Source: Candidatus Riflebacteria bacterium HGW-Riflebacteria-1 (GTDB lineage Bacteria > Muiribacteriota > Ozemobacteria > Ozemobacterales > Ozemobacteraceae). Taken from it: a stretch of 56,676 nucleotides of DNA. This document shows, piece by piece, positions 35,783-55,659 of this stretch. Position numbers and translations under genes: made by a program. Positions within the stretch are counted from its first letter, which is position 1, and the number at the start of each line of letters is the position of its first letter. The DNA lies in contig PGYB01000006.1 in the NCBI GenBank assembly GCA_002839445.1, forward strand, positions 128,001-184,676, read 5' to 3'. The notes beneath the pieces are model-generated. The model was not told the DNA's origin. It saw only the letters and a program-made list of their open reading frames with translations, and did not search any database.

Positions 35783-35868
35783 GTCATCCTGCACGCAGTC
35801 GCAGGATCCAGGATGGCAATAAAGGCCATGGATTCTGCGACTTCGCGTTGTTCGCACAGAATGACGAG
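35783..35868 (+). repeat. REP/MITE-like nested-palindrome element, copy C
   Basis: GTCATCCTGCACGCAGTCGCAGGATCCAGGATGGCAATAAAGGCCATGGATTCTGCGACTTCGCGTTGTTCGCACAGAATGAC. Lies in the 532-bp divergent intergenic region upstream of the pfa-ole operon. Confidence 0.6.
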
Positions 35869-36188
35869 AAAAAGCGAGAGTTATAGAACCCTCAAACAAG
35901 AATTCGTCATACCTTTCCCCAGTCACAATACAGCTGACACATGACACAGGTTTGCCTCGTCAACAAGAATTGCTGACAGATACCTGCATATTTATTCTTT
36001 AATCTTTGCCAACTAAATATTGCTCGAAAATTTTGCTTTTACATGTTAATATATTGCGCAAATAACTGGCACTTTAAAGAAACTGACGCCCGCAGATCCG
36101 GTTCAACAGCGTAATCCGCCGTTAAGCCCTGCTGTGGGGGCGGCAGGTGTGATGTCATTTAGATTCTGAACGATACAGGAAGGTCGGC

Positions 36189-39100
36189 ATGAAGCGCAAA
36201 GAAGCAAAATTTGAACCACTGGCGATAGTCGGAATGAGTTGTCTTTTCCCAAAGGCTCAGAGCCTTGAAGATTACTGGGCCAACATCAAAGAAAAAGTTG
36301 ACGCAATAAGCGAAGTACCGGCGACACATTGGAATTCCGCCGACTACCTCGACAGCGACAAAAAGCGTGCCGATCATGTGTACACTTCTACCGGTGGCTT
36401 TCTTGATCCCGTTGATTTTGTGCCCGGCGATTGGGGAATCGCGCCTTCTGACCTCGACTCAATCGACACTTCGCAACTGCTTAGTCTCGTAGTCGCGCAG
36501 GGCGCTCTCAGTGACGCAGGTTACGGCGCTGCTCGCGATTTTAATCGCGACAACGTCAGTGTTATTCTTGGCCTTACCGGCACTCTTGAGATGGTTGTTC
36601 CGCTTGGCGCGCGTCTCGGGCACCCCATCTGGCGCCGGGCCATGCAACATGCCGGTATTCCGGCAGATATCACTGAAGAAGTTATTACCAACATAGGCAA
36701 AGCCTACGTTGGCTGGCAGGAAAACTCTTTCCCTGGCCTCCTTGGCAACGTTGCTGCCGGACGCATCGCGAATCGCCTTAACCTGGGCGGAACCAACTGC
36801 GTCGTCGATGCTGCCTGCGGCAGTTCGCTGGGCGCCATCAATCATGCCGCTCTCGAACTCTGGACTGGCAAAACCGACATGGTTATAACCGGCGGCGTAG
36901 ACACCTTCAATGATATTTTCATGTATATGTGTTTCTGCAAAACACCGGCCCTGTCACCCACCGGCCACGCCCGTCCTTTCAGTGTTGACAATGATGGCAC
37001 TATTCTTGGCGAGGGAATCGGCATGCTGGTGCTTAAGCGCCTGTCAGATGCTGAGCGAGATGGTGATCGTGTTTACGCCTGTATAAACGCGGTCGGCAGC
37101 TCAAGCGATGGCAAAGGCAAGGCTATTTACGCCCCCAGCCCCGTTGGTCAGAAAAAAGCCCTGATGCGCGCCTACGAAATGGCGGCGATAACGCCGCGCG
37201 ACATCAGCCTTATTGAAGCGCACGGCACCGGCACCAACGCCGGTGACGAAGTAGAAACCACGGCACTGAAAGAGCTCTATGGCATCTCTGAAAATGGTCG
37301 ACCATGGTGCGCCCTTGGCTCAGTCAAGTCACAGATTGGCCATACCAAGGCAGCAGCCGGCTCAGCCGGTATTATAAAAGCCGCTCTTGCTCTTTACCAT
37401 AAGGTTATTCCGCCGACTATCAAAATTTCGCAGCCAGCCAACGGCGTGCGCGGCGAAGAAGTTCCATTTTACATGCCCGATAAAATCAGACCCTGGATTA
37501 CCGATGATGCAAGGCCACGCATAGCTGCTGTCAGCGCCCTCGGATTTGGCGGCAGCAACTTTCACGTAGTCGTATCTGAATACAAGTCAGAGAAGACTGT
37601 TGACGACTGGAAGCGCAGCGTAGAACTGGTTACCATTTCTGGCAAAACTCCGGCTGAGATCGAAAATCGTCTGGCAAGCCTGACCAGTTGCAAAAATGCT
37701 TACCAGCTGCGCAAATACGCCGCTGAATCACGCCGCGACTTTAATGCCGACGATAATTGTCGACTGACTTTCGTAGTCGAAGCAATTCACGATATTGAAA
37801 AGATCGTTACCGATATTACCGGTAATCTGTCCAAGAAAGACGGTTCTTTTAATCTGCCAAATGGCGTGTATTATGCCACTGGCGAACAGAAAGCACCGGT
37901 CGGTGTAATTTTTCCCGGTCAGGGAGCGCAATATCCCGGAATGAGTCTCGACCTCGTCTGCAGCAATCAACAGGCTTTTGCCGCCTTTATCGAAGCTGAC
38001 CAGGCAATTTCGTCTCTCGACGCGCAAAACAATCACCTTGTTGATTACGTGTATCCACGCCCGACCTACGATTCCGAAAAAGACAAACTCAACGATGAAA
38101 AACTGCGGGCAACCGACATCGCGCAGCCGGCAATAGGCGCAATAGCTCTTGGCCAGTATCGCGCGCTTGAAGCGTTCGGCCTGCACGCCGATGGCTTTGC
38201 CGGCCATTCATACGGCGAGCTGGTAAGCCTCTGTGCTGCCGGCGCATTTGATAACGCAACTCTGGCAAAACTCTCGCGCAAACGCGGGCAGTTGATGGCT
38301 CAGGGCAGCGGCGACCGCGGCGGCATGATTGCCGTTGCCGCAGATCGCACCTTTGTTAAAGAACTGATCGCCGAAGAAAATCTCGATCTCGTGGTAGCCA
38401 ATCACAACTCACCACAACAGGTTGTGCTTTCCGGCAAAACCTCGGAAATCGAACGCTCACGCGAAGTTTTTAAAGCGCGCAAACTGCGTGCTACCGTGCT
38501 TAATGTCGCCGGCGCCTTTCACAGCAAATTTGTTTCTGACGCTGCCGAACCGTTCCACGCGTTTCTGGCCAGCGAAAAAATCAGCAAACCCTCGGTGCCG
38601 GTATACGCGAATACAACCGCTACCCCCTACCCTTCAGATACTGAAGAGATTAAAAAGCTTCTCGGCTTTCAACTTGCCAACCAGGTGCGTTTCGTCGAAA
38701 TCATCGAAAAAATGTACGCCGACGGAATAAGAACCTTTATTGAAGCCGGGCCCGGCGGAAAAATCACGGGTCTGATCAAGTCTATTCTTGAGGGCCGCGA
38801 ATGCAACATTATCGCGGTCGATTCATCTGCCGGCAAACGTTCTGGCCTCAATGATCTGGCCAGAGTGCTCGCCCAGCTCAGCGCGATCGGCTATAAACTG
38901 CAGGTCACCCGCTGGCAGGACGGCGAAAACTGGCTGGCACAGCAGCCCCAGAACGTCAAACCGAAACTGACTTTCCCGGTCTGCGGCGCCAATTACAAAT
39001 CGCCGGCACATGTTAAATTTTGCGAGGAACTCGCGAAACCGGCGACAGCAAAGCTGATCACCAGCAAAACACCGCCGGCACCGGCAAGCCAGCCGGCCGC

Positions 39101-42100
39101 TAACCAGTCGAGACCTGCGGCTAATATTGCCCCGGCGCCTCAGCCGCAATCTCAGCAACAATCTCAACCGCAGCAGCCAATCTCTTACGTGGCGCCGGCG
39201 CCTGTTATGCCAGCAGCCACCAACGAAGCTCTCAGACTTTCACGCGAAACCCTTTCGGCCATGCAGCAGCTGCAGCAACAAACTGCTGAACTGCACCGCC
39301 GCTTCCTCGAAGGTCAGGAAACCGCGCAAAGAACCATCATGGCGCTGGTTTCAGGGCAGAGCATGCCTGCCGCCAACGCAGCAACTTTTGCGCAGCCGGC
39401 AGCAATGCCGACTCCAGTGCGCGCTCAGCCAGCCGTTTACGCAACGCAACCAGCCCAGGCACCTGTCATGCCGCAGCCCCAGGCTGCACAGCCGATAGCT
39501 CAGGCAGTCAGGGCAACACCAGTTGCAGCGCCAGTAGCAGCCACACCGGCAGCTCCGGATACCAGCCGCATTCAGCCTGTTCTGCTTGATGTCGTGAGTG
39601 AGAAGACCGGTTATCCTGTTGAAATGCTGAACCTCGACATGGATATGGAAGCTGACCTCGGCATCGACTCGATCAAACGCGTCGAAATCATGTCGGCCAT
39701 GCAGGAACGCCTGCCCGATGCCCCGGTAGTTCAGCCCGACCAGCTTGGCAAACTGCGCACACTTACCCAGATACTTCAGTATCTCGGCAGTAATACCAGC
39801 GCGACAGCGACAAAAGCTCCATCTGCAGCGACTTCTACCGCTGCTTCTGCCGCAACGCCCGATACCAGCCGCATTCAGCCGGTTCTGCTTGATGTCGTGA
39901 GTGAAAAAACCGGTTATCCTGTGGAAATGCTGAACCTCGACATGGATATGGAAGCCGATCTCGGCATTGACTCGATCAAACGCGTCGAAATTATGTCGGC
40001 CATGCAGGAACGCCTGCCTGACGCACCCGTAGTGCAGCCTGATCAGCTTGGCAAGCTGCGCACGCTCACCCAGATACTTCAGTATCTCGGCAGCAACGCA
40101 GGTGCACCAGTCAGCGCCGCGCCGGTTCCGCAATCTGCCAGCAATGCCGGGGCAGCTGCGATCAAGCCTGTTTTGATCGAAATTGTCAGTGAAAAAACCG
40201 GTTACCCCGCCGAAATGCTGAACCTCGACATGGATATGGAAGCTGACCTTGGTATCGACTCGATCAAACGCGTCGAAATCATGTCGGCCATGCAGGAACG
40301 CCTGCCCGACGCGCCGGTAGTGCAGCCTGATCAACTTGGTAAACTGCGCACGCTTGCCCAGATTCTCGAGTATCTTGGTTCTGGCAGCAACAATGCAGCG
40401 CAGCCGACAGCTGCTCATAGCACCCCGGCAGCAATACCCGGAATAAACGGCATATTGCTCGAAGTTATTGCCGACAAAACCGGTTACCCGACTGAAATGC
40501 TCAACCCTGACATGGATATGGAAGCCGACCTCGGAATAGACTCGATCAAGCGCGTCGAAATTCTCTCGGCTTTTCAGGAACGGGTCCCTGAAGCTCCAGT
40601 AGTGCAGCCCGGTGATCTCGGAAAGTTCAGAACCATCTCTCAGATACTTGAGTATCTGAATGCTGGCAATGCCGCACCGGCGGCAGTAGCAGCTGAACCC
40701 GCAAAACCAGCGGTCGCGATTAAACTTGAGCCATTAGCTCTCGACAAGGCGACACCCGAGCATTTTCCCATCAAACGCACAGTCTTGCGGGCATATGAAC
40801 TTGGTGCAAGCACAGCAGCGCCCTTGAAAAACCTTAAAAAAGGCGACAGTCTGATCGTAGTTGATGATGGCTATGGTCTTGCCGAAGCTGTTTGTGAGCA
40901 GTTCGCAGCAGCAGGTTACCAGCCATGCCGAGTTAAGCTTGCTGATGTCGGCGCCGCGAAGTTTCTCAATACTATAAAGGGCTTTGTTCTGATCGCGCCG
41001 CTGCCCGAAAAGGCTGCACACAACCTTTGGGAGAGGTCGTCAGAAGAATGGCTTAAAGACTGTTTCATCGCTGCCCAGAAAGCTGGCATGGCTATTAAAG
41101 CTAATGGCAGCGGCCTGTTCGCAACTGTTTCACGACTTGATGGCGCATTTGGCCTTGAATCGCCGACCCGCACCATAGACCCGGTTCAGGGTGGCCTCGC
41201 CGGACTGAGCAAGACAATTGCCCACGAATGGCCAGAAATGTCAGTGCGCGCTATCGACCTTGATTACCGCTTCAAAGACATGCAAAGTGCTGCCGAAAAA
41301 CTGGTCAGGGAACTGTTGCAGCAGGGACCACTGGAAACCGGCCTTACCCGCTCAGCCCGCTATGGTCTGCGCGAAGTAGAAGAGCAGATAGATGAACTAC
41401 CCGGCTCAGATATGCTGCGCCAGGGTGAAACCGTAGTGGTCACTGGTGGTGCCCGCGGTGTAACAGCTGAAACAGCGCTCGAAATGGCAGTCAAGTATCA
41501 CACCAACATGGTGCTGATCGGCCGTTCGCCTGAGCCAACACCTGAACCAGCCTGGTTGAAGGGTGTCACTGGTGACGCTGCAGTTAAACAGGCAATCCTC
41601 AAGAACAGCAGCAAAAAATTGTCGCCCAAAGAACTCGAAGCTGAGTTCAAATCAACCATGGCTAACCGCGAAGTTCTTCACAACCTCGCGCGCATAAACA
41701 GCGCCGGAGTCAAAGCCTTATATTATTCAGCCGATATTCGCGATGCTGATGAGACTGCCCGCGTAATTGATCGCGCGCGCAGTGAATCAGGTCCAATACG
41801 TGCCCTGATGCATGGCGCAGGCGTATTGCGCGACCGCCGCATCGAAGACAAAACGCGTGATCAGCTTGATGATGTTATCGATACCAAGGTAGCCGGCTTG
41901 CGTAATCTGCTGCTGGCCACAACCAAAGACGACCTCAAAGCGATAATCCTCTTCTCATCTTTCTCCGGGCGCTTCGGTAGAACAGGCCAGGTCGATTACT
42001 CAATGGCCAACGAAGTGCTGAATAAAGCAGCCCACAAATTGCGTATCAACAGACCGGGATGCCGAGTGCTTTCATTTAACTGGGGCCCATGGGACGGTGG

Positions 42101-43130
42101 CATGGTAACGCCTTCTCTGCGCAGCGTCTTCCTTGCCGAGGGAATTGGCCTGATACCATTGCGCGATGGCGCGAGACAGCCAATTATTGAACTTAGTCAG
42201 AACTCTTCTGATGCAGTAGAAATTGGCATTATTGGTGAGATAGCCAGCGTGGAGGCTCCGCCCCCCGGAAAAAAGTTCGATAAGGTTTTTGACTTTGATA
42301 TCAATCTGAAGGAAAACGCCTGGCTCAAAGACCACGTGATCAATGGCGATCCGGTTCTGCCGATGGCAGTAGCCGCCGAACTGCTGGCACAGGCTGCTAC
42401 TTTGCGCAACCCCGGGCTGCTCTTTGCCGGCTATGATGAATTGCGCGTCCTCAAAGGCCTGGTGCTCAAAGAGCATAACCTGCCGGTAACTCTCTACGCT
42501 GCCCGGCCCCGCAAGTGTGAAGAAGGCTTCAAGGTGACCTGTGAGATCAGAAGCCTTATCGGCGCGCGCGAAATCGTGAATATCCGTGCCGAAGTTCTTC
42601 TGGTTGAGCAGCTGTCTACGCGTATACCGGCGGCTGTCAAGGCTGACGCCCATCTGGTATACCCGGATTCAATAAATGAGGCCTATCAGAACCACCTGTT
42701 CCATGGCGAATTTCTCAAAGCATTGCAGACCGTCGAAGGCTGGTCGGAAAACGGTATCGTGGCACAATCTGCCACTGCGCTTGACCCGATCGCGTGGTTC
42801 GCCCGTCCGCCAATGTTGCGCTGGCACACTGATCCGCTGGTGGTCGACGCGGCCTACCAGCTCATGATTCTCTGGACCACTCAGGCCTGCGGCGCACCCT
42901 CACTGCCCAGTTTTGCCCGACACTACCGCCAATACGCCAGCGGTTTTGGAAAAGTGCCGGTTACAGTTTCTGCCCGTACCAGACGCAGCGGCGCCATGAT
43001 GGCCAGTGCCGACATAGATTTTATCGATGCCTCAGGCAATCTTCTGGCCAGAATCGAAGGCTATGAATGCACGATGAATGAAAATCTGCGCAACGCTTTC
43101 ATGCTCAGGTCTGTTGGTGGAGCTGAATAA
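36189..43130 (+). CDS. pfaA: PfaA-like polyunsaturated fatty acid/polyketide synthase subunit: KS - MAT - 4x ACP - KR - PKS-type DH
   Basis: KS active site VVDAACGSSLGAINHAALEL. AT motif GHSYGELVSLCAAG. Four tandem ACPs, each with LGIDSIKRVEI(M/L)SA. KR Rossmann VVVTGGARGVTAE. DH motif HVINGDPVLPMAVAAELL. AGGAAGG RBS lies 6 nt upstream. The stop overlaps the next start (TAATG at 43128-43132). Confidence 0.95.
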   Translation: MKRKEAKFEPLAIVGMSCLFPKAQSLEDYWANIKEKVDAISEVPATHWNSADYLDSDKKRADHVYTSTGGFLDPVDFVPGDWGIAPSDLDSIDTSQLLSLVVAQGALSDAGYGAARDFNRDNVSVILGLTGTLEMVVPLGARLGHPIWRRAMQHAGIPADITEEVITNIGKAYVGWQENSFPGLLGNVAAGRIANRLNLGGTNCVVDAACGSSLGAINHAALELWTGKTDMVITGGVDTFNDIFMYMCFCKTPALSPTGHARPFSVDNDGTILGEGIGMLVLKRLSDAERDGDRVYACINAVGSSSDGKGKAIYAPSPVGQKKALMRAYEMAAITPRDISLIEAHGTGTNAGDEVETTALKELYGISENGRPWCALGSVKSQIGHTKAAAGSAGIIKAALALYHKVIPPTIKISQPANGVRGEEVPFYMPDKIRPWITDDARPRIAAVSALGFGGSNFHVVVSEYKSEKTVDDWKRSVELVTISGKTPAEIENRLASLTSCKNAYQLRKYAAESRRDFNADDNCRLTFVVEAIHDIEKIVTDITGNLSKKDGSFNLPNGVYYATGEQKAPVGVIFPGQGAQYPGMSLDLVCSNQQAFAAFIEADQAISSLDAQNNHLVDYVYPRPTYDSEKDKLNDEKLRATDIAQPAIGAIALGQYRALEAFGLHADGFAGHSYGELVSLCAAGAFDNATLAKLSRKRGQLMAQGSGDRGGMIAVAADRTFVKELIAEENLDLVVANHNSPQQVVLSGKTSEIERSREVFKARKLRATVLNVAGAFHSKFVSDAAEPFHAFLASEKISKPSVPVYANTTATPYPSDTEEIKKLLGFQLANQVRFVEIIEKMYADGIRTFIEAGPGGKITGLIKSILEGRECNIIAVDSSAGKRSGLNDLARVLAQLSAIGYKLQVTRWQDGENWLAQQPQNVKPKLTFPVCGANYKSPAHVKFCEELAKPATAKLITSKTPPAPASQPAANQSRPAANIAPAPQPQSQQQSQPQQPISYVAPAPVMPAATNEALRLSRETLSAMQQLQQQTAELHRRFLEGQETAQRTIMALVSGQSMPAANAATFAQPAAMPTPVRAQPAVYATQPAQAPVMPQPQAAQPIAQAVRATPVAAPVAATPAAPDTSRIQPVLLDVVSEKTGYPVEMLNLDMDMEADLGIDSIKRVEIMSAMQERLPDAPVVQPDQLGKLRTLTQILQYLGSNTSATATKAPSAATSTAASAATPDTSRIQPVLLDVVSEKTGYPVEMLNLDMDMEADLGIDSIKRVEIMSAMQERLPDAPVVQPDQLGKLRTLTQILQYLGSNAGAPVSAAPVPQSASNAGAAAIKPVLIEIVSEKTGYPAEMLNLDMDMEADLGIDSIKRVEIMSAMQERLPDAPVVQPDQLGKLRTLAQILEYLGSGSNNAAQPTAAHSTPAAIPGINGILLEVIADKTGYPTEMLNPDMDMEADLGIDSIKRVEILSAFQERVPEAPVVQPGDLGKFRTISQILEYLNAGNAAPAAVAAEPAKPAVAIKLEPLALDKATPEHFPIKRTVLRAYELGASTAAPLKNLKKGDSLIVVDDGYGLAEAVCEQFAAAGYQPCRVKLADVGAAKFLNTIKGFVLIAPLPEKAAHNLWERSSEEWLKDCFIAAQKAGMAIKANGSGLFATVSRLDGAFGLESPTRTIDPVQGGLAGLSKTIAHEWPEMSVRAIDLDYRFKDMQSAAEKLVRELLQQGPLETGLTRSARYGLREVEEQIDELPGSDMLRQGETVVVTGGARGVTAETALEMAVKYHTNMVLIGRSPEPTPEPAWLKGVTGDAAVKQAILKNSSKKLSPKELEAEFKSTMANREVLHNLARINSAGVKALYYSADIRDADETARVIDRARSESGPIRALMHGAGVLRDRRIEDKTRDQLDDVIDTKVAGLRNLLLATTKDDLKAIILFSSFSGRFGRTGQVDYSMANEVLNKAAHKLRINRPGCRVLSFNWGPWDGGMVTPSLRSVFLAEGIGLIPLRDGARQPIIELSQNSSDAVEIGIIGEIASVEAPPPGKKFDKVFDFDINLKENAWLKDHVINGDPVLPMAVAAELLAQAATLRNPGLLFAGYDELRVLKGLVLKEHNLPVTLYAARPRKCEEGFKVTCEIRSLIGAREIVNIRAEVLLVEQLSTRIPAAVKADAHLVYPDSINEAYQNHLFHGEFLKALQTVEGWSENGIVAQSATALDPIAWFARPPMLRWHTDPLVVDAAYQLMILWTTQACGAPSLPSFARHYRQYASGFGKVPVTVSARTRRSGAMMASADIDFIDASGNLLARIEGYECTMNENLRNAFMLRSVGGAE
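39556..40650 (+). repeat. Four tandem ACP-domain-encoding repeats (~290 nt each; copies 1 and 2 almost identical at DNA level)
   Basis: ccggataccagccgcattcagcc(t/g)gttctgcttgatgtcgtgagtga... recurs at ~39556 and ~39857, with further diverged copies at ~40160 and ~40445. Confidence 0.85.
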
Positions 43131-46100: not shown

Positions 46101-49100
46101 CCAACTGCTTTGCCGCGGTAGTAGCCGATTCCGAAACTACTCTGCGCCGCCGCGTTGATATCGCGCTGAATCATCTCTACAACAATGAAAACAGTCCGAT
46201 GCCTGCTGGTCCTGAGATTCAGGACCGAATTTTCTATAACCCGAATCCCTCAGCGGCGAACGGCAAGATCACTTTTGCCTTTCCCGGTTCTGGCAACCAT
46301 TTTCTTGGCATGGGCACAGCACTTGGTCTTACCTGGCCCGAGCATCTGCGCCGCCTCGATGCAGAACATGAACTGTTGGCCGCGCAGTTCGCACCGCGCT
46401 TAACCGCGCCATGGCGCCTGAGTTACGCACCAGGCTGGCAGGATGACGCCATGCACCAGCTCATTGCTGACCACAATTCACTGGTTTTCAGCCATGTGTC
46501 GTGCTGCGCGCTGGTGAGCGATGTTGTCAGAAGCTTTGGTATTGAACCGGAAATCATCATGGGCTACAGTCTTGGTGAAACCGCGGGCAATTTTGCCACG
46601 CGCACCTGGCGCGAACGCGATGAAATGGTGCGGCGCATGCGCAGTTCGAACCTCTTTACTACTGAGCTGATCGGACGCTACAACTCGCCGCGCCGCCAAT
46701 GGGGCATCGCTGAGAATGAAGTTGTTGAATGGTATCTCGGCGTTATTTACAGCCCGGCAGCGAAGGTCGAAAAGCTGCTGCCAGACTTTCCACAGACCTA
46801 TATTCTCATCGAAAACACCGCCGAAGAATGCGTTATTGGTGGCAACCGCGTCCAGGTCGAAAAGCTGGCCAAAGCCGTTGGCAAAGCCTTCTTTCCGCTC
46901 GAAGGCGTGTCGTCGGTACATTGCGAGGCTGCCTTGCCTTCAGCTGAAGACTATCGTGCACTGCACCTGTATGACTGTCACCCGCCCACCGGCATGACTT
47001 TTATCAGCAGCGGTAAGGGCACTGTCTTTACGCCGCAGCGCGAAGTTTCAGCAGACTCGATCAAAGCGCAGTGTATAGGCCGTATCAACTTTATTAAATG
47101 TGTTGAAACCGCTTACGCCGAAGGAGCGCGCCTGTTTCTTGAAATCGGCCCACGCGCCTCGATGTCGCGCATGATCAGCAATATTCTCGGCCAGCGTCCG
47201 CACTTTGCCAGATCAGCGCTGCTGCATGGCCAGAATCAGGTCAGCAGTATGCTGCGCTTTATCGGTAACGTTGCCGCCGAGGGCGTTAAAGTTGATCTCT
47301 CCCCGCTTTATCGCCAGGCCGAAGCGCCGGCAGCAGCAGTTGCCAGCAAAATCGCGCCCGTAATCATCAAGGTCGCCCACCAGATTGACATCGGCAAACT
47401 GCAGCGTCGTGAAACGGTTGCCGCAACACCGGTTGTCGCAGCACAGTCAACAGCGAAGACCGTAATCCAGGCCGCCGCGCCAACTCCTGTTGAGCGTGCT
47501 ATGACAGTCGACGGCACCACAGATTCTGCCGCCAGATTTGTAACATCAGAAAGTTCAGCCATGAAAAGCCAATCAGCTCAGCCTTCGCCCACAACCCGCC
47601 CGGCTCACATACAGCAGCCAACAACATTGCCTGCAGCAACCAGCCCGCAGCAATATCAAGCTCCCGTTTCTGTCCCGGCTCGACTCAGCGACCTGCCGCA
47701 GCATCCTGCCAATCTTGCAGCCGGTTCTAATTCGCTGCTCGACGGCTGGGTCGCCGCGCAGCACGAAACCGCACGTGCGCATGAAGTATTTCTGCGCCTG
47801 AGCTCGCAGATCGGCGAAGCGCATGCTACATTGCTTAACCAGCAATTGCAGCTCATGCAGGGCATGCCAGCGCAAAATATGCTGGCAGAATTGCCGGATG
47901 AGTCGTGCGCGCAACTGCCAGCGCCTTCGCAGCTGCCGGTTTCGCTGACTCCCGACTACACGCAGCGCATGCCCAGACCTTATACCGGGCCTTTGTTCAT
48001 CGACTGGCACGGCTCGATGGAATTCGCTGTCGGCAAAATCGGCAAGGTTCTCGGCGAATATTTCGCGCCGATTGACGCGAACCCGACGCGCGTGCGCCTG
48101 CCCGACATCCCGCTCAACTTCGTCGACCGTATAGTGCTCGTTGAGGGCGAAAAAGGCTCACTTGGCAAGGGGCGCTGCGTTACCCAGCACGATGTCTACC
48201 CCGACAGCTGGTACCTCGACAATTACTGCATGCCGACCGGGCTTTCAGTTGAAGCCGGTCAGGCTGACCTCTTTCTCTCCGCCTGGCTCGGTATCGACTT
48301 TAAAACGCACGGCGTCGCTAAATATCGACTGCTTGACGCGATTGTTACCATTCACGGCCCCCTGCCCCGCCCCGGCGACACGGTAAATTACGATATTCGC
48401 GTTGACCGTTTCATCAGGCAGGCCAACACTTACCTGTTCTTCTTTGAATTCGACGGCAGCATCGACGGGAGACAGCTGATTACCATGCGTGCTGGCTGCG
48501 CCGGCTTCTTTACCGACCGTCAGCTTGCCGACGGCAAGGGAATCGTGCTGACAGACGACGACACCAGGCCTGATCCCCGCCCCAACCTGCCCGGGCGACA
48601 AAACCTGCCGACCATGCGGGTAGAATCATTCAATGATTCGGCCCTCGCCGCGCTGCGCGCGGGCAACCTCGCCGCCGCTTTCGGCAGCGAGTTCGCCGGC
48701 CTCCCGGTGACACCGCAGACTATTCCATCGCGCAAGATGGCGATGATCGACCGGATCACTGAAATAGACCCGACCGGCGGCCGCTTCGGCCTCGGACGCA
48801 TCAAGGCTGAAATTGATATTCCAATAGATGCCTGGTTCTTGACCCAGCACTTCTGTGACGATCAGGTCATGCCCGGCACGCTGATGTATGAGTCGTGCAT
48901 GCAGTCGCTGCGCGTTTTCCTGCTGCGCATGGGCTGGGTGGCTGACGCTTCAACCTCAGCTTTTGAGCCGGTTCTCGAAGTGCAAAGCCAGCTGCGCTGC
49001 CGTGGTCAGGTTACCCCGGGCGTCAAAAAAGCCCTTTATGATATCTCGATCAAGGAACTCGGCTACAACCCTGAACCCTACGCCATTGCCGATGCGCTGA

Positions 49101-50386
49101 TGTTCGCCGACGGCAACCGCATAGTGCAGGTGCTCAACATGAGCATCCGACTTACCGGAGCCAGTCGCGAGAGCATCGAGGCCCTCTGGCAAAACCGTGT
49201 TCAACACCACGCTGTTACTCCAGTTCCACAGGCAAGCGAGATTCTGCCGGCTATCTACAGCGGTCAGCAGATTCTTGAATACGCGATTGGCAAGCCTTCT
49301 CTCTGTTTCGGCGAAAAATTCGTGCCCTTTGATGAGCAGAGGTTCCTCGCCCGCCTGCCAAATCCGCCATATCTTTTTGTCGACCGCATAACCGCTGTCA
49401 ACGCGGAATTTCTCAAGATCAAGACCGGCGGTACCGTTCAGGGGCAGTTTGATATCAGCCCCGATCACTGGTTCTTCAAGGCCAATCGCCAGACCAGCAT
49501 TCCGTTCTCGATTCTGCTCGAATTCCCGCTGCAGGTCTGCGGCTGGTATTCATGCTATATGGGCTCGGCGTTCGCCAACGAAAAAGAACTGCACTACCGC
49601 AACCTCGACGGTTCGGCGACGCTCTACGAAGATGTCAACATCAACAGCGGCACCCTGACAGCTACGGTCACCACTACCAGAGCCGCTAACTCTGCCGGAA
49701 TGCTGATTCAGTCTTTCGACATGCTGGTCACCCAGGCTGGTCGCAAGATCTACGAAGGCAATACCACCTTCGGTTTCTTCGCTAAGGAAGCTCTCGCCAA
49801 CCAGGTTGGCTTTCGCGGGCTCGAGCTCTATGAGCCTTCAGAAGCCGAGAAGCAGCGCCATGTTGACTTCCCGCTCGAAATCGTGTCACCGCTTAATCCG
49901 CAGGACACTCGCGTTGACGCGATGAATGGTCTCGCCCTTCCCGGCAAATGCTACCTGATGCTCGACCGCATCGAACTGTGCATTCCCGACGGTGGTCCGG
50001 CCGGACTGGGCTTTATCAGAGGCACTAAGCAGGTCGACCCGTCGGAGTGGTTCTTTAAGGCACACTTCTATCAGGACCCGGTCATACCCGGCTCTCTCGG
50101 CCTTGAGTCCTTCATTCAGCTGATGAAAGTCGCGGCGATTAAGCGCTGGGGCACTCAGCTCGCCGGTCGTAACTGCCACTATGAACCGATGGCGCTGAAC
50201 CAGAAGCATACCTGGTCATATCGCGGTCAGGTCATTCCAAAGGATAATCTGGTAACCGTCGATGCCTGCATAACCAGGGTCGATGACGCTGATCATCTGC
50301 TGGTTGCCGAAGGCTTCCTCAAGGTAGATGGACGTATAATCTACAGCATGAAAGAGTTTGCGCTCAGAGTTGTAATTGATGGCTAA
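43130..50386 (+). CDS. pfaC: PfaC/PfaB-fusion-like PUFA synthase subunit: KS - CLF - AT - 2x FabA-like DH
   Basis: KS Cys LDAACASSLYAIKLACEEL. The second KS-like domain lacks the Cys (SSGENSGLSALEAG), so it is a chain-length factor. AT motif IMGYSLGETAGNFATR. Two FabA-type motifs (LTQHFCDDQVMPGTLMYESCMQ; FFKAHFYQDPVIPGSLGLESFIQ), each preceded by a pseudo-hotdog half. No enoyl-reductase domain. Confidence 0.95.
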   Translation: MTANALPRKPFAIAITGVGGMFPGADSLDDFWQMIAEGRSAAAEVPAGRWPEAAVKYHDPRPGTPDRVLSPRNCALKSIPKNYAHLQISPELVEKLDPLLAISLQVGRDAFLDAVTTGLDLNRVQVILANIVLPTDTASVITREMHISALREQLGKGLVSSKSSEVHPLNRLAAELPATLLASALGLGGGGYTLDAACASSLYAIKLACEELTARRADAVLTGGVSRPSSQFTQMGFSQLHALSKTGICRPFDQGADGLVVGEGAGMFLLKRLADAEAAGDKIYAVIRGIGLANDVGGSLLAPDTEGQMRAMTQAYQQAGWQPRDVQLIECHGTGTPKGDAIEFSSLHQLWQNEKSSAAKCVIGSVKSNVGHLLTGAGAAGLMKLLMALKNRQLPPTANFNQADPAIAIEQSHFEILKQPRAWEPAPEQPRRCALSAFGFGGIDGHVLLEEYCNNSKKPAAKAKQAEAAPEPLPEIAIVAIETRAGTLPDLNAFQKAVINCEPAIRDIPDNRHPITSNAAWLKKGAYLDEIAIRPGEFKISPKEIPEILPQQLLMLQTADHALRSIKRTPEETRNWGVYMGINLDFASTSFASRWAIEKDARAAGFEGIAMADLADAITPPLNNPRTVGALGGIVASRIAREYNIGGPSHTFSSGENSGLSALEAGTRALQRYEISAALVGAVDLAGDLRNLNCIDALRPFSRKNGSVAFDQSADGAFPGEGAVALVIKRKEDALRDGNRIIALVKGIGRSTQTSPGDRDSAIEAYGRAMHTAWNESGLNIAGMGLLEVHGSGNPDEDRIEAAALAKTLPGKDQSAQNRFKSNDQLCALSASKMVVGHTGAAAGLFSLAKAAVCLYQQVLPRYPGMQNPIPDMQNREDFFFTPAEPQFWLRNRIQGERTAGISSFTIDGNFYHVVLQALENEDQLPVEVQIDNERARCFPGGAPEESLFIVGGINACDTRERLAALRNMADRPIRQLAAEYWQQYAPGDYANCFAAVVADSETTLRRRVDIALNHLYNNENSPMPAGPEIQDRIFYNPNPSAANGKITFAFPGSGNHFLGMGTALGLTWPEHLRRLDAEHELLAAQFAPRLTAPWRLSYAPGWQDDAMHQLIADHNSLVFSHVSCCALVSDVVRSFGIEPEIIMGYSLGETAGNFATRTWRERDEMVRRMRSSNLFTTELIGRYNSPRRQWGIAENEVVEWYLGVIYSPAAKVEKLLPDFPQTYILIENTAEECVIGGNRVQVEKLAKAVGKAFFPLEGVSSVHCEAALPSAEDYRALHLYDCHPPTGMTFISSGKGTVFTPQREVSADSIKAQCIGRINFIKCVETAYAEGARLFLEIGPRASMSRMISNILGQRPHFARSALLHGQNQVSSMLRFIGNVAAEGVKVDLSPLYRQAEAPAAAVASKIAPVIIKVAHQIDIGKLQRRETVAATPVVAAQSTAKTVIQAAAPTPVERAMTVDGTTDSAARFVTSESSAMKSQSAQPSPTTRPAHIQQPTTLPAATSPQQYQAPVSVPARLSDLPQHPANLAAGSNSLLDGWVAAQHETARAHEVFLRLSSQIGEAHATLLNQQLQLMQGMPAQNMLAELPDESCAQLPAPSQLPVSLTPDYTQRMPRPYTGPLFIDWHGSMEFAVGKIGKVLGEYFAPIDANPTRVRLPDIPLNFVDRIVLVEGEKGSLGKGRCVTQHDVYPDSWYLDNYCMPTGLSVEAGQADLFLSAWLGIDFKTHGVAKYRLLDAIVTIHGPLPRPGDTVNYDIRVDRFIRQANTYLFFFEFDGSIDGRQLITMRAGCAGFFTDRQLADGKGIVLTDDDTRPDPRPNLPGRQNLPTMRVESFNDSALAALRAGNLAAAFGSEFAGLPVTPQTIPSRKMAMIDRITEIDPTGGRFGLGRIKAEIDIPIDAWFLTQHFCDDQVMPGTLMYESCMQSLRVFLLRMGWVADASTSAFEPVLEVQSQLRCRGQVTPGVKKALYDISIKELGYNPEPYAIADALMFADGNRIVQVLNMSIRLTGASRESIEALWQNRVQHHAVTPVPQASEILPAIYSGQQILEYAIGKPSLCFGEKFVPFDEQRFLARLPNPPYLFVDRITAVNAEFLKIKTGGTVQGQFDISPDHWFFKANRQTSIPFSILLEFPLQVCGWYSCYMGSAFANEKELHYRNLDGSATLYEDVNINSGTLTATVTTTRAANSAGMLIQSFDMLVTQAGRKIYEGNTTFGFFAKEALANQVGFRGLELYEPSEAEKQRHVDFPLEIVSPLNPQDTRVDAMNGLALPGKCYLMLDRIELCIPDGGPAGLGFIRGTKQVDPSEWFFKAHFYQDPVIPGSLGLESFIQLMKVAAIKRWGTQLAGRNCHYEPMALNQKHTWSYRGQVIPKDNLVTVDACITRVDDADHLLVAEGFLKVDGRIIYSMKEFALRVVIDG

Positions 50387-50419
50387 GTTTGCTATCCTGC
50401 CCAAACCACAACGAATATT

Positions 50420-51460
50420 ATGAAATTTACCCGCGTATTTCTTGAAGCCATCGGCTACGAACTGCCTCAGCATGTTGTTACTTCGTCCTGGATCGAAGAA
50501 CAGCTTGCTCCGCTGTACCGCAAATTGCATCTACAGCCTGGCCAGCTCGAAGCGCTTACCGGAATACGCGAGCGCCGCTGGTGGGGGCACAACCATGTTA
50601 ACGCGGTCGAAGCCGCCAAGGCAGCCAAGAAGGCCCTGGCCGAAACTGATATACCGGTCGAAGATATCGGCGCTGTCGTCTATGGCGGCGTCTGTCGCGA
50701 CAACTACGAACCTGCTACCGCCTGCCACGTTGCCGCTGAGCTGAAAGTGCGTGCCGAGACCGCGATCTGCGATGTCTCGAACGCCTGTCTTGGCGCCATG
50801 AGTGGCATTATCGATATTGCTAACCGCATCGAACTTGGGCAGATCAAGGCTGGTATCGTTGTTGCCTGCGAAACTGCCCGCGATATTACGCAAATCATGA
50901 TTCAGCGCATGCTCGAAGAAGGTTCAATGGAATTTTTTAAACAGGCGCTCGCCACCATGACCGGCGGCTCTGGCGCCTGCGGCATTGTGCTCAGCGATGG
51001 TTCATACGGCGAAAGAGGCCCACGGCTTGCTGGCGGTGTAATTCTCGGCGCACCCGAACATCATCGCATGTGCCGCTGGGGAGCTGATCAGCGTATTCCG
51101 GCCCGCGCCCCGCAGATGATGGAAACCAACGCCATTGGTATGCTGCGCCACGGCGGAGACCTTATTCGCCGTGTTGGTGAAGCTTTCTGGCGCGAACTGA
51201 ACTGGACCAGCGACCAGCTTGACAAGATAATTTCGCATCAGGTGGCCAGCGCTAACCGCGACGCCATACTCAATAACCTCGGCCTGACGCTCGAAAAAGA
51301 TTTTTCGACCTTTCAGTTTCTTGGCAACATGGGAACCGTTTCTCTGCCGGTTACCGCAGCGATCGCCATGGAACGCGGCATCCTCGAAAAGAACCAGAAA
51401 GTCGGATTTGTCGGCATCGGAAGCGGTCTTAACAGCATGATGCTCGGATGGGAATGGTAA
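50420..51460 (+). CDS. oleA: OleA (FabH-like thiolase catalysing head-to-head Claisen condensation)
   Basis: KAS-III/thiolase fold with catalytic Cys in ICDVSNACLGAMSGIIDIAN. Sits 34 nt downstream of pfaC and is followed by oleBCD. Confidence 0.85.
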   Translation: MKFTRVFLEAIGYELPQHVVTSSWIEEQLAPLYRKLHLQPGQLEALTGIRERRWWGHNHVNAVEAAKAAKKALAETDIPVEDIGAVVYGGVCRDNYEPATACHVAAELKVRAETAICDVSNACLGAMSGIIDIANRIELGQIKAGIVVACETARDITQIMIQRMLEEGSMEFFKQALATMTGGSGACGIVLSDGSYGERGPRLAGGVILGAPEHHRMCRWGADQRIPARAPQMMETNAIGMLRHGGDLIRRVGEAFWRELNWTSDQLDKIISHQVASANRDAILNNLGLTLEKDFSTFQFLGNMGTVSLPVTAAIAMERGILEKNQKVGFVGIGSGLNSMMLGWEW

Positions 51461-51461
51461 T

Positions 51462-52355
51462 ATGACATTTAACCACGCAGAATATCAGGATATCTATCCT
51501 TTCACCCCGCACCATTTTACGCACCAATCAGGCTTGAAACAGCATTATGTCGACGAGGGCAACGGCGAACCCATCGTCATGGTACATGGCAACCCGAGCT
51601 GGTCTTTTTTGTACCGCGACATGATCAGAACTTTTATGAACGGCTATCGCTGCGTTGCGCCCGACCATATTGGCTGCGGCCTTTCTGACAAGCCCGGGCT
51701 CGACAATTTCGGCTACACTCTGCGCGAGCATATCGACAACCTTGAAACGCTCATCGAAAGCCTTCAACTGACGCAGCCGATCAACCTCGTCGTGCACGAC
51801 TGGGGCGGAGCCATTGGCATGGGTTATGCCACCCGTCACCCCGAAAAAATCAAGCGCATGGTCATTCTTAATACCGGCGCGTTCAGGCTGCCACAGGATT
51901 GCCCTTTCCCATGGCCTGTCTGGCTGTTCAGAAACACCGATCTCGGTGCCTGCCTTAACCAGACTTTCAACGCCTTCTCTTTTATCGCCAGTCACACCTG
52001 CTCGCTTAAAGGCATGAGCCGCAAGGTGCGTCACGGTTTCCGGGCGCCCTACGACAGCCCTGCCAACCGCGTCGCCACCACCCGCTTCGTGCAGGATATC
52101 CCACTGGTCGCTGATGATCCTTCTTACACTGAGCTTGTGCGCGTTGAAGAAAACCTCAGCAAACTCGCTGACAAACCAGCACTGATCTGCTTTGGCCGCC
52201 TCGATTTTGTGTTTACACGACATTTTTACAATGAATGGAAGCGGCATTTCCCGAAAGCAATCGCGCGCAATTTCCATGCCGGCCACTACCTGCTCGAAGA
52301 CGTTGGCTCAGAAGTATTCGCCCTGATGCGCGAACTGTTAGAATCACGATCCTGA
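51462..52355 (+). CDS. oleB: OleB (alpha/beta-hydrolase, haloalkane-dehalogenase-like beta-lactone decarboxylase)
   Basis: Asp nucleophile in NLVVHDWGGAIGMGYA. HGNPSWSFLYR oxyanion region. C-terminal His (FHAGHYLLED). 1-nt gap after oleA. Confidence 0.85.
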   Translation: MTFNHAEYQDIYPFTPHHFTHQSGLKQHYVDEGNGEPIVMVHGNPSWSFLYRDMIRTFMNGYRCVAPDHIGCGLSDKPGLDNFGYTLREHIDNLETLIESLQLTQPINLVVHDWGGAIGMGYATRHPEKIKRMVILNTGAFRLPQDCPFPWPVWLFRNTDLGACLNQTFNAFSFIASHTCSLKGMSRKVRHGFRAPYDSPANRVATTRFVQDIPLVADDPSYTELVRVEENLSKLADKPALICFGRLDFVFTRHFYNEWKRHFPKAIARNFHAGHYLLEDVGSEVFALMRELLESRS

Positions 52356-52372
52356 ACCCGGGAGCACATACC

Positions 52373-54043
52373 ATGCCTGAACCACAAAACCAGGGCTTCA
52401 ACATGGCGGCTTTTATCCGCCAGAAAGCCGCGCTAACTCCGCACAAACGAGCCATTGTGGTTCCCTCCTGTCGCAACAGTTACGGCCGTGTCGCCTACAC
52501 TCAACTGACTTTTCGGCAGCTCGAAGAAGAAACCAACCGCTTTGCCCGCGGCTTCAACCGCGCCGGAATCGGCCGTGGCAGCAAAACCGTGCTGATGATC
52601 ACACCCGGCATTGAATTTTTTATTGCCTTTTTCGCACTGTGCAAGGTCGGCGCAACTCTGGTTATGATCGACCCGGGCATCGGCATGGCCAGCCTCAAGA
52701 CATGTATCGGGGAAGCGAAACCCGAGGCCTTTGTCGGCATTACCAAGGCCCACGTCGCGCGCGTTCTTATGCGCTGGGCGCCTGACAGCATCAAAATTCG
52801 CGTAACTCTTGGCCCTCGCCTGTTCTGGGGCGGCCACAAATTTTATGACCTGCGTGACAATGACGCGTCGCCTTATGAAATCGCGATGATGCCGCGCGAT
52901 GAGATGGCGGCGTTGATGTTCACTTCGGGCAGCACTGGCATTTCGAAAGGTGCTGTCTACACGCAGGGCATTCTCTGCAGCCAGGTTCAGTATATACAGG
53001 AAATCTACGGCTTTACCCCCGACGATGTTGATCTCGCGACTTTTCCGCTTTTCGCCCTGTTCGATGTCTGTCTCGGCATGACCGCGGTAATTCCTGACAT
53101 GGACGCAACCAAGCCGGCCAAAGCCGACCCGCGCAAGCTCACCGAAGCGATTAACGACAACGGTGCCACCTCGATGTTCGGCTCGCCGGCACTCATTGAC
53201 ACTCTCAGTCGCTGGGGCGTTGAGAATTCGGTCACACTGCCGTCGCTGCGCAAGGTTCTTTCCTGTGGTGCGCCGGCGCGCAATGATATTCTGCAGCGCT
53301 TTCACCGCATGCTCCCCCAAGACTGCGAGATTTTTACTCCTTACGGCGCTACTGAAGCGCTGCCGGTCAGCTCGATCGGCAGTCGCATGATTCTCGGCGA
53401 AACCGCGCCGATCACTGACGCCGGCGGCGGCACCTGCGTTGGCTTGCCTATTCCGAGCGTCAAAGTTAGAATAATCAAGATCAGCGACGAGCCGATCACG
53501 CAATGGAACGATGATCTTGTCGTCACTGCCGGCGAAATTGGCGAGATTACGGTCACCGGGCCGATCGTCACCCGTGAATACTATAGCCGCCCCGAAAGCA
53601 CCATGCAGGCCAAGATTGTCGACGGCAACAGCATCTGGCACCGCATGGGCGATCTCGGTCGCATTGATGAGCAGGGGCGCGTCTGGTTCTGCGGCCGCAA
53701 GTCACATCGCGTCGTTGGCGAAAACCAGACCTGGTTCTCGATTCCCTGTGAGCGCGTCTATAATCAGCATTCGCATGTATTCAGAACCGCCCTGGCCGGA
53801 ATCGGCGAAAAGGGAAAACAGGTTCCGGTAATCTGCGTCGAGCTTGAGAAGGGCGTCGCCGAAGTCAATACCGAAAAGCTTATTGCCGAGCTCATCGAGA
53901 TCGGCAGCAGACATCAGCATACTGCGGCCATAAAGCATTTTCTAATTCATCCGGGGTTCCCCGTCGATATTCGCCACAACGCCAAGATCAGCCGCGAAAA
54001 ACTATCTGAATGGGCCACCGAAAAGCTCAAGGGGCGCATTTAA
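52373..54043 (+). CDS. oleC: OleC (AMP-dependent synthetase family; beta-lactone synthetase)
   Basis: AMP-binding motif MFTSGSTGISKGAVYT, with later YGATEA and GEI motifs. The likely start ATG at 52373 is 17 nt after the oleB stop. The ORF-track start at 52235 would overlap oleB by 120 nt. Confidence 0.85.
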   Translation: MPEPQNQGFNMAAFIRQKAALTPHKRAIVVPSCRNSYGRVAYTQLTFRQLEEETNRFARGFNRAGIGRGSKTVLMITPGIEFFIAFFALCKVGATLVMIDPGIGMASLKTCIGEAKPEAFVGITKAHVARVLMRWAPDSIKIRVTLGPRLFWGGHKFYDLRDNDASPYEIAMMPRDEMAALMFTSGSTGISKGAVYTQGILCSQVQYIQEIYGFTPDDVDLATFPLFALFDVCLGMTAVIPDMDATKPAKADPRKLTEAINDNGATSMFGSPALIDTLSRWGVENSVTLPSLRKVLSCGAPARNDILQRFHRMLPQDCEIFTPYGATEALPVSSIGSRMILGETAPITDAGGGTCVGLPIPSVKVRIIKISDEPITQWNDDLVVTAGEIGEITVTGPIVTREYYSRPESTMQAKIVDGNSIWHRMGDLGRIDEQGRVWFCGRKSHRVVGENQTWFSIPCERVYNQHSHVFRTALAGIGEKGKQVPVICVELEKGVAEVNTEKLIAELIEIGSRHQHTAAIKHFLIHPGFPVDIRHNAKISREKLSEWATEKLKGRI

Positions 54044-54056
54044 CAGGAGAGAATCG

Positions 54057-55079
54057 ATGACTGACCAGAAACATGAACTCAAGGCTGGCCAGATAGCCTT
54101 GGTAACCGGCGGCAGCGGTTTTCTTGGCCGCGCCATAGTAAAACAGTTGCTCGCGAAGGGCTTAAAGGTTCGCGTTCTTTGTCGCAAGGACTACCCCGAC
54201 CTCATCGAGGCCGGCTGTCAGATTTGCAGGGGCGAGATTTCTGACGCTGATCTTGTCGACAAGGCCGTGCAGGGCTGCGAGATGGTATTTCATACCGCCG
54301 CCAAGGCCGGAGTTGAAGAGCCGTATTCAGAATATGAGCGCATTAATTATCAAGGAACTCTCAATGTTCTGAAGAGCTGCCAGAAGCACGGCGTCAGTCG
54401 TCTGATCTACACGAGTTCACCCAGTGTAGTTTTCGCGCATGGCGATGTCGAGGGTCTCAATGAGAGCATGCCCTACCCCGACCATTACGATGCTTATTAT
54501 CCAAAAACCAAGAGCATGGCCGAGAAAGAAGTGCTTAAAAGCAATTCTGACAAGCTTGTAACCGTTGCGCTGCGCCCGCACCTGATCTGGGGTCCCGGCG
54601 ACACCAATCTCGGTCCGCGCCTGGTCTCTCGCGCCCGCGCTGGTCGTCTCAAGTTTGTTGGCGATGGCAAAAACAAGGTTGACACGGTGTACATCGACAA
54701 CGCCGCCGACGCGCACATTCTTGCTGCTGAGCGTCTCTATGCTGGCTCTCCAGTTGCCGGCAAAGCCTACTTCATCACCAACGCTGACCCCCGGCCGATT
54801 TCTGAGATCACCAACCTGATCATCGGCGCCGCCGGTTGCGCACCGGTCACCGCGACAATTTCTCCCAAAATTGCCTGGTTCATCGGCCTTTGTTGCGAGA
54901 CAATCTACAGGACTTTCAAGGTCAAGGGCGAACCGCCGATAACCCGCTGGGTCGCCGGCGAACTTTCGACTGCGCACTGGTTTGACATTTCCGCCGCCCG
55001 CCGCGACCTCGGCTACGAACCGCGTGTCAGCATCGAAGAAGGCATAACGCGCCTGCGCGATTACTACCAGAAGCAGTAA
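54057..55079 (+). CDS. oleD: OleD (NAD(P)H-dependent reductase of the 3-beta-HSD / extended SDR family)
   Basis: VTGGSGFLGRAIV Rossmann motif and YPKTK catalytic Y-x3-K. Completes the oleABCD order. Confidence 0.85.
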   Translation: MTDQKHELKAGQIALVTGGSGFLGRAIVKQLLAKGLKVRVLCRKDYPDLIEAGCQICRGEISDADLVDKAVQGCEMVFHTAAKAGVEEPYSEYERINYQGTLNVLKSCQKHGVSRLIYTSSPSVVFAHGDVEGLNESMPYPDHYDAYYPKTKSMAEKEVLKSNSDKLVTVALRPHLIWGPGDTNLGPRLVSRARAGRLKFVGDGKNKVDTVYIDNAADAHILAAERLYAGSPVAGKAYFITNADPRPISEITNLIIGAAGCAPVTATISPKIAWFIGLCCETIYRTFKVKGEPPITRWVAGELSTAHWFDISAARRDLGYEPRVSIEEGITRLRDYYQKQ

Positions 55080-55152: not shown

Positions 55153-55659
55153 ATGAGATTAATTCAAGCATTTAGAGCAATCTTCGCCTTAGCCGCTTTA
55201 TCATTTCTTCTTTTTTCATATAATCGTGGAGATCTACATCCAGCTGACAAGACTCTTCTGGCTAATTTTACAAGAAATGAGCAGGTTTTCGAGAAGCTCG
55301 TAGAAATGATTCGAACGGATAAAAGGCTGCTACGAATTGATCAAATCTGGACAATTCCAACAAATCCGCAATCCGTTGGCATAACAGAAGCAAGAATTCT
55401 TGAATACCGAACCCTATTAATCAGACTTGGCCTGTCATTGGCCTTATATGAGTTTCACAGACCAGTGACAATCATCTTAGTGGCAGCATCAAAAGATTGG
55501 GTGCGTTCTCCGCCAAGACAGGGCTATGCATATCTGGAGATGAAACCGAATCACGTCGTCGGAACCCTGAAAAATTACTGGCCGAAAGCAGGGAAACCCG
55601 TTACTGTATATCAGCACATTAAGGGCAACTGGTATATTTTTTTCGACTTTAAGGATTGA
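55153..55659 (+). CDS. Hypothetical protein with N-terminal hydrophobic segment, in AT-rich DNA
   Basis: 168-aa ORF with an AGGAACAAGGA-like RBS. N-terminal FRAIFALAALSFLLF. The composition differs from the upstream operon. Confidence 0.4.
   Translation: MRLIQAFRAIFALAALSFLLFSYNRGDLHPADKTLLANFTRNEQVFEKLVEMIRTDKRLLRIDQIWTIPTNPQSVGITEARILEYRTLLIRLGLSLALYEFHRPVTIILVAASKDWVRSPPRQGYAYLEMKPNHVVGTLKNYWPKAGKPVTVYQHIKGNWYIFFDFKD

Follow-up and report, generated by a model that had tools for sequence, protein, structure and literature searches.

We analyzed a 56,676-nucleotide stretch of DNA from Candidatus Riflebacteria bacterium HGW-Riflebacteria-1 (contig PGYB01000006.1, positions 128,001 to 184,676), referred to below as the window. 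It contains a putative operon in which two genes for a Pfa-type synthase, related to those that make polyunsaturated fatty acids (PUFAs), are directly followed by oleA, oleB, oleC and oleD, the genes for head-to-head olefin biosynthesis. The features relevant to this operon, identified from the list of open reading frames (ORFs) and domain searches, are given below. Domains are abbreviated as KS (ketosynthase), CLF (chain length factor), AT (acyltransferase), ACP (acyl carrier protein), KR (ketoreductase) and DH (dehydratase); PKS stands for polyketide synthase.

36189-55079, + strand: six-gene operon pfaA-pfaBC-oleA-oleB-oleC-oleD
35657-36188, + strand: upstream intergenic region, 532 nt, 43.8% GC, presumed to hold the promoter
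36189-43130, + strand: pfaA-like gene, 2313 aa, KS-AT-4xACP-KR-DH (PKS-type DH), from Pfam domains and TIGR02813
39606-40609, + strand: tandem ACP-coding repeats within pfaA, visible in the DNA (period 288 nt, 3.5 copies)
43130-50386, + strand: pfaB/C fusion (pfaBC), 2418 aa, KS-CLF-AT-2x FabA-type DH
50420-51460, + strand: oleA, 346 aa, thiolase-type enzyme of head-to-head Claisen condensation
51462-52355, + strand: oleB, 297 aa, haloalkane-dehalogenase-like alpha/beta hydrolase, predicted beta-lactone decarboxylase
52373-54043, + strand: oleC, 556 aa, ANL-family enzyme, predicted olefin beta-lactone synthetase (the ORF opens at 52235)
54057-55079, + strand: oleD, 340 aa, predicted NAD(P)H-dependent 2-alkyl-3-oxoalkanoate reductase of the short-chain dehydrogenase/reductase, 3-beta-hydroxysteroid dehydrogenase family

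Layout of the operon and its proteins

The original prediction, made from the sequence alone, described six co-directional, tightly packed genes. ORF coordinates and junctions bear this out, as all six genes lie on the + strand with very short distances between them. The pfaA and pfaBC genes overlap by 1 nt (TAATG), and the subsequent gaps are 33 nt (pfaBC to oleA), 1 nt (oleA to oleB), 17 nt (oleB to oleC) and 13 nt (oleC to oleD). These values agree with the junctions listed earlier except for the pfaBC-oleA gap, which had been given as 34 nt. The 17-nt gap assumes that oleC starts with the ATG at 52373, which has GGGAG 8 nt upstream; there is a rival start at 52403, and the public annotations of identical contigs are divided between the two. 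The ribosome-binding site and the AT-rich region proposed to precede the first gene are also present: AGGAAGG lies 5 nt ahead of the pfaA ATG, and the GC content of the 532-nt leader is well below the 55.6% of the operon. The leader includes two promoter-like stretches (35710-35738 and 35941-35970), which are consensus matches only.

We found no terminator-like hairpins within any intergenic gap of the operon, and the total number of terminator-like sites (24) is at the level expected from shuffled sequences (24.1). Internal terminators dividing the operon were therefore rejected, and co-transcription of the six genes as one unit appears plausible. A regulatory RNA in the leader was rejected as well, since no Rfam family matched any part of the window at the gathering threshold. 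Finally, we rejected orf168 (55153-55659) as a seventh member of the operon: it has no family matches, no homologue adjoining oleD in the 80 OleA loci described below, and a GC content at third codon positions of 0.38 compared with 0.55-0.67 for the operon genes.

The Pfa-type proteins retain the expected catalytic residues. PfaA scores 1697 bits against TIGR02813 (cutoff 1010). The active-site Cys of its KS domain lies within DAACGSS, a motif starting at residue 207, its AT domain has GHSYG at about residue 674, and its four ACPs have LGIDS phosphopantetheine-attachment serines at residues 1161, 1262, 1358 and 1452. In PfaBC, the KS domain has Cys198, the CLF has Glu656 at the Cys position, and the PfaB-like AT has GYSLG with Ser1147. 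Two of the four hot-dog repeats in this protein carry the FabA-type active site HFxxDxVxPG (His1907 and His2312). PfaBC residues 13-857 align with a solved 1014-residue chain (6RIW_A) deposited as ‘ORF10’, which we take to be the Moritella PfaC KS-CLF didomain. Neither PfaA nor PfaBC has an enoyl reductase (ER) domain or room for one. The Pfam scan revealed no AGPAT domain in the two proteins, and the scans of the larger window ORFs no thioesterase, which agrees with a synthase that serves OleA alone.

This domain composition corresponds to the ‘Type I’ pfa-like cluster defined by Shulse and Allen in 2011, who described the pfaBC fusion in Geobacter, Desulfuromonas, Pelobacter and Gemmata (PMC3098273). 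PfaA has the KS, malonyl-type AT (MAT), tandem ACPs and KR(-DH) in this order, while KS-CLF, AT and FabA-type DH are combined in one pfaB/C fusion protein. The higher GC content of the operon relative to the left (49.5%) and right (42.8%) flanks would fit horizontal acquisition of the cluster, as the literature proposes for Type I clusters.

OleA scores 425 bits against NF006720 (cutoff 285). Its Glu97, Cys123, His273 and Asn303 align with the EP, NACL, HQV and GN motifs of Xanthomonas campestris OleA (3ROW) and are invariant across 14 homologues. The OleA-specific Glu base is Glu117 in X. campestris numbering. The overall match to X. campestris OleA is distant (160 bits), and identity to OleA from the Shewanella and Geobacter loci is 52-57%. 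Robinson et al. (2020) required at least two of oleB, oleC and oleD in the genomic context of an oleA (PMC7064751); here, all three follow downstream with gaps of 1-17 nt. OleB has the nucleophile Asp113 in HDWGG and a C-terminal His275 (GH). It scores 137-160 bits with haloalkane dehalogenase models, below their cutoffs, as expected of a non-dehalogenase relative, and the position of oleB between oleA and oleC is kept in most of the 80 OleA loci. OleC scores 710 bits against its parent family NF006754 (cutoff 478), 630 bits against NF045786 and 620 bits against NF045785, the best specific models (equivalog cutoffs 900 and 850), and is 42-53% identical to OleC of the Shewanella and Geobacter loci, in conserved order. 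The top models for OleD are NF042422 (410 bits) and NF042423 (376 bits), with a cutoff of 580; the protein matches Pfam 3Beta_HSD (E = 4e-57) and is 42-57% identical to OleD of ole loci. None of the solved structures is a close relative of OleC or OleD. Overall, these domain searches speak against what had been named beforehand as a possible refutation, namely, that the downstream genes code for a generic FabH or haloalkane dehalogenase and not for OleABCD-type proteins.

Distribution of the arrangement and location of the pfaD and PPTase genes

To see how widely this gene order occurs, we searched 80 genomic loci around OleA relatives using tblastn with the window proteins. We considered a locus informative if it included 700 nt or more of sequence upstream of oleA, which was the case for 74. 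In 58 of the 74, representing about seven phyla, a PfaBC homologue encoded on the strand of oleA has its C-terminus no more than 1.7 kb upstream of that gene. Usually, pfaBC and oleA are 10-80 nt apart; pfaA precedes pfaBC, and oleB-C-D come after oleA. The linked loci come from Riflebacteria/Ozemobacteraceae, Desulfobacterales, a Gemmatimonadota metagenome-assembled genome (MAG), Desulfuromonadales (Geobacter, Desulfuromusa, Pelobacter, Trichlorobacter and the cultured Geomobilimonas luticola and Pelotalea chapellei), Planctomycetota (the cultured Aquisphaera insulae, and Phycisphaerae), Verrucomicrobiota (Limisphaerales), and Thiotrichaceae along with other Gammaproteobacteria. Most of the loci without this linkage belong to Shewanella, Parashewanella, Psychromonas and Pseudoalteromonas, where the two gene sets were already known to lie apart. 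Thus, pfa-ole linkage is the majority state within this OleA clade. That pfaBC has stayed next to oleA in about seven phyla supports functional coupling of the Pfa and Ole proteins.

The closest OleA homologues (95-97% identical) belong to Candidatus Riflebacteria MAGs (HGW-Riflebacteria-2, 96%; GWC2_50_8) and the more distant ones to Ozemobacteraceae. The tight gene spacing is kept in the Riflebacteria relatives (loci L001, L003 and L004), and an identical OleD is encoded on 60-204 kb metagenome contigs from ENA and JGI. Samples with the identical contigs are ERZ27239240, 3300038335 and 3300029821.

Several loci show local variation. In Desulfuromusa (L017, L021, L022 and L032), a gene for a 488-aa pyridine nucleotide-disulphide oxidoreductase is located between pfaBC and oleA. 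In two Thiotrichaceae loci (L031, 11269-12375; L033, 6841-7947), a gene for an ImpB/DinB-family polymerase is located between oleA and oleB. OleA of these two and of related gammaproteobacterial and Phycisphaerae loci is ~50 residues longer (~399 aa). On a JGI contig (L166, 2785-9967 and 11953-13627), gene calling divides both the pfaBC and the oleC homologue into two ORFs, which may reflect a frameshift, an assembly error or pseudogenisation in the population.

Two components of Type I clusters, the PfaD-family ER and the Sfp/HetI-type phosphopantetheinyl transferase (PPTase, pfaE), are absent from the operon. With Riflebacteria queries, tblastn gave no match to PfaD, PPTase or orf169 (a 169-aa ORF described below) in the 56.7-kb window, and Pfam/NCBIfam scans of the larger window ORFs revealed no NMO or ACPS domains. 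Neither gene occurs within 10 kb downstream of oleD on the contigs with identical OleD, where only variable defence and toxin-antitoxin genes are found; the region downstream in L001 holds only unrelated genes. Based on these scans, searches and flanking contigs, we rejected the possibility that an ER or PPTase is hidden in the window or just past it.

Scanning metagenomes with the KS domain of PfaA gave 80 loci, which show where pfaD usually lies. PfaD is encoded directly 5' of pfaA in 71 of them as judged by a 550-590-aa ORF, or in 72 by tblastn; with the PfaD-family model TIGR02814, two representative upstream ORFs reach 616 and 631 bits. Three loci with 71-72% KS identity (L088, L089 and L091) have the order pfaD, HetI-like PPTase, 169-aa ORF, pfaA. 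A PPTase gene follows oleD in 18 (clustering) or 21 (tblastn) of the OleA loci, but not in the window. In place of pfaD, the window has a divergent penicillin-amidase gene upstream of pfaA. The same gene is found there in the closest relatives L086 and L092, whereas the short contig L087 has a 184-residue partial amidase fragment and L085 has no amidase match.

In HGW-Riflebacteria-2, a gene for a 556-aa PfaD (P0145) overlaps that for a 243-aa PPTase on a contig other than the operon's. The pair is flanked by thrB-thrC on one side and by Uma2/ABC genes on the other, and pfaA does not occur in its vicinity. A separate pfaD-PPTase pair without pfaA is also present in two other relatives. Among the pairs seen in relatives is that on PGYA01000019.1. 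In the subclade of the window, the copies in L165 (10001-12386) and L172 (6001-8386) have overlapping pfaD and PPTase frames and share their neighbours, namely thrB-thrC before the pair and Uma2 and an ABC ATPase after it; in L168-L171 the pair is followed by a 1470-aa ORF without a Pfam match. An unlinked pfaE has been reported for Moritella and Aetherobacter (PMC4882568). These gene orders are most economically explained if the ancestral unit, pfaD-PPTase-(orf)-pfaA-pfaBC-oleABCD, came to be divided between two loci in this lineage. Judging by its gene content, the operon is not self-sufficient, and the ER and PPTase would act from elsewhere. Because PfaD and the PPTase are missing, the 19-kb operon alone would not be expected to work in a heterologous host. 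The original prediction had overlooked this in proposing to express the operon as it stands; such expression would need the unlinked pfaD and PPTase genes to be added.

Proposed pathway and alternatives

We consider it likely that the Pfa-type synthase feeds OleA to give a long polyunsaturated olefin, with the ER and PPTase encoded elsewhere in the genome. The OleABCD assignments, together with the pfaBC-oleA adjacency conserved in 58 of the 74 loci, lend support to the same idea in the original prediction, which had a synthase feeding OleA and a polyunsaturated hydrocarbon as the product. A PPTase acting in trans would prime the four PfaA ACPs. PfaA and PfaBC, with PfaD in trans, would then assemble a methylene-interrupted polyenoyl-ACP of medium chain length in repeated rounds; going by the Shewanella case, its chain would be 16:4n-3. 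OleA would join two such chains head-to-head into a 2-alkyl-3-oxo acid, OleD would reduce the 3-oxo group, OleC would close the beta-lactone, and OleB would decarboxylate it to a cis-olefin. The product would most likely be hentriacontanonaene, a C31:9 polyene, or a closely similar compound. PfaD and the PPTase could be supplied by a pfaD-PPTase pair at a separate chromosomal locus, as in close relatives. The sequence itself establishes the gene content, the intact domains and active sites, the close packing of the genes, the conservation of their arrangement, and that ER and PPTase genes are missing from the 56.7-kb window and from 10 kb past its right end; we infer co-transcription, the product identity and a direct hand-off from ACP to OleA.

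Several points weigh against this interpretation. OleC and OleD score below the strict NCBIfam equivalog cutoffs. The pfaD-PPTase locus is seen in relatives only. Neither domains nor sequence reveal how long the chain is or how many double bonds it has, and the host is uncultured. Moreover, in Geobacter bemidjiensis, which has the most similar published cluster, the evidence that ties this cluster to C31:9 is correlative (PMC4882568).

A more specific version of the proposal would make the Riflebacteria synthase a dedicated hydrocarbon-precursor machine that yields no membrane PUFA, hands chains directly from ACP to OleA, and has its ER and PPTase relocated to a second locus, possibly with separate regulation or with a product that is unlike C31:9 in chain length or unsaturation. 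We regard this version as unlikely.

The alternatives concern the product, the coupling and the integrity of the system. The main end product might be different: a polyunsaturated ketone, a beta-lactone, or an olefin with a chain length other than C31:9. There are precedents, as OleA alone with pfaA-E in E. coli gives a 31:8 ketone (PMC6463001) and oleACD clusters without oleB make beta-lactones (PMC7064751), and the length of the chain is not predictable from sequence. However, none of the four ole genes is missing or visibly damaged, oleB has its Asp and His, and the sole cultured organism reported to have this type of cluster makes C31:9 (PMC4882568). We therefore hold a different main product to be improbable.

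Adjacency without coupling is less probable still. Here, the Pfa synthase would make membrane PUFA or another lipid, while OleABCD would use acyl-CoAs from type II fatty acid synthesis (FAS II), as in Xanthomonas. X. campestris OleA does take ordinary fatty acyl-CoAs (PMC7064751), and the product of a Type I synthase has never been directly shown (PMC3098273). Nevertheless, uncoupled adjacency is unlikely, because the pfaBC-oleA neighbourhood is conserved in about seven phyla and the OleA in question is far nearer to OleA of the Shewanella and Geobacter loci than to that of X. campestris. Likewise, the AGPAT or thioesterase that might release PUFA for phospholipid was not among the domains found in PfaA, PfaBC or the larger ORFs scanned, respectively, and OleA of PUFA producers exclusively condenses the Pfa-derived chain even though FAS II is present (PMC6463001).

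Least probable of all is that the operon is a decaying, non-functional remnant left by the loss of the ER and PPTase genes: although neither pfaD nor a PPTase gene occurs in the window or in the flank downstream of it, while 71-72 of 80 relatives keep pfaD beside pfaA, the two ORFs of 2313 and 2418 codons are uninterrupted with every checked catalytic motif retained, the pfaD-less layout is conserved among several related lineages (79-93% identity), and close relatives keep the pfaD-PPTase pair elsewhere in a conserved context.

Other parts of the window have features of their own. On the - strand, a 1406-aa ORF (28898-33118) shows an unusual fusion of pyruvate-phosphate-dikinase-like N-terminal and phosphoenolpyruvate-utilizer mobile domains to a complete phosphoglycerate kinase. 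Also on the - strand (8115-16340) is a resistance-nodulation-division efflux set, probably a Cus-like metal exporter, that consists of an AcrB-type pump, an HlyD-type adaptor with HMBD (heavy-metal-binding) repeats and two outer-membrane factor genes. The end of the window (55660-56676) is AT-rich and apparently non-coding, with direct repeats of ~100 nt (56195-56296 and 56578-56673) that are 85-100% identical. Past orf168, the contigs with identical OleD diverge completely and contain OLD-family nuclease/AAA, HicAB and DUF4160/DUF2442 genes, so that this region looks like a variable island beside the operon.

Comparison with known pfa and ole systems

Clusters of this type have been described before. 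Shulse and Allen found ole genes to be ‘often linked’ to pfa-like clusters, proposed Type I clusters as the source of olefin precursors and noted that G. bemidjiensis makes hentriacontanonaene (PMC3098273). Yoshida (2016) reported that this C31:9 producer has pfaD-A-B-C-oleABCD-pfaE in tandem (PMC4882568). In the light of these two studies, the earlier statement that the products of pfa-like/ole clusters are ‘essentially uncharacterised’ was too strong. Allemann et al. (2019) showed in vivo that OleA joins the Pfa and Ole pathways: Shewanella OleA condenses Pfa-derived 16:4n-3, probably straight from the Pfa ACPs (PMC6463001). It is fair to say that genetic proof of the pfa-ole connection is confined to Gammaproteobacteria; published support for a C31:9 pathway that depends on pfa and ole comes from genetics in Shewanella and from the chemistry of G. 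bemidjiensis. Our literature search found no paper tying Riflebacteria to PUFA or olefin genes.

The G. bemidjiensis cluster has the same order and strand of pfaA, the pfaB/C fusion (with the AT between CLF and DH) and oleA-D. Loci of Geobacter and other Desulfuromonadales share 39-45% (Pfa) and 50-57% (Ole) identity with the window proteins, and both hosts belong to anaerobe-associated lineages. In contrast to G. bemidjiensis, the window operon is without the 5' pfaD and the 3' PPTase gene, for which relatives have a separate two-gene locus; the host belongs to phylum Riflebacteria, and an unrelated low-GC 168-aa ORF follows oleD.

Shewanella and Photobacterium follow the same logic, in that a Pfa synthase supplies 16:4n-3 from which OleABCD makes C31:9. 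The Shewanella and window OleA proteins are 52-54% identical, and the domain order of PfaA is shared. However, in Shewanella the two operons are unlinked, with no Pfa match within 10 kb of oleA, whereas in the window they are linked. In addition, PfaB and PfaC of Shewanella and Photobacterium are separate proteins, unlike the fusion in the window, and their synthase also makes eicosapentaenoic acid for phospholipids. In Photobacterium profundum SS9 the pfa and ole operons are adjacent with pfaT between them (PMC6463001); no pfaT-like gene was found in the window.

Myxobacterial pfa1-3 (Type L) of Aetherobacter and Sorangium resembles the window system in having an AT inside the PfaC-like protein and, as in the window lineage, a PPTase at a distant locus (PMC4882568). 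On the other hand, pfa3 ends in AGPAT and pfa1 (ER) lies upstream, while the window operon has neither AGPAT nor a linked ER. Myxobacterial synthases make free or esterified PUFAs and are unlinked to ole, whereas oleABCD directly follows the synthase genes in the window.

The present case places Riflebacteria, an uncultured candidate phylum, among the groups with a pfa-ole polyolefin system and adds to the evidence that pfa-ole linkage is the common state outside marine Gammaproteobacteria. The role of polyunsaturated hydrocarbons in anaerobes would be better studied in cultured organisms with the same arrangement, such as G. bemidjiensis, Geomobilimonas luticola, Pelotalea chapellei and Aquisphaera insulae. 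Taken together, the comparisons identify the locus as a Riflebacteria (Ozemobacteraceae) example of an already published type of pfa-ole cluster, with the minor variation that the ER and PPTase would be encoded at a second locus.

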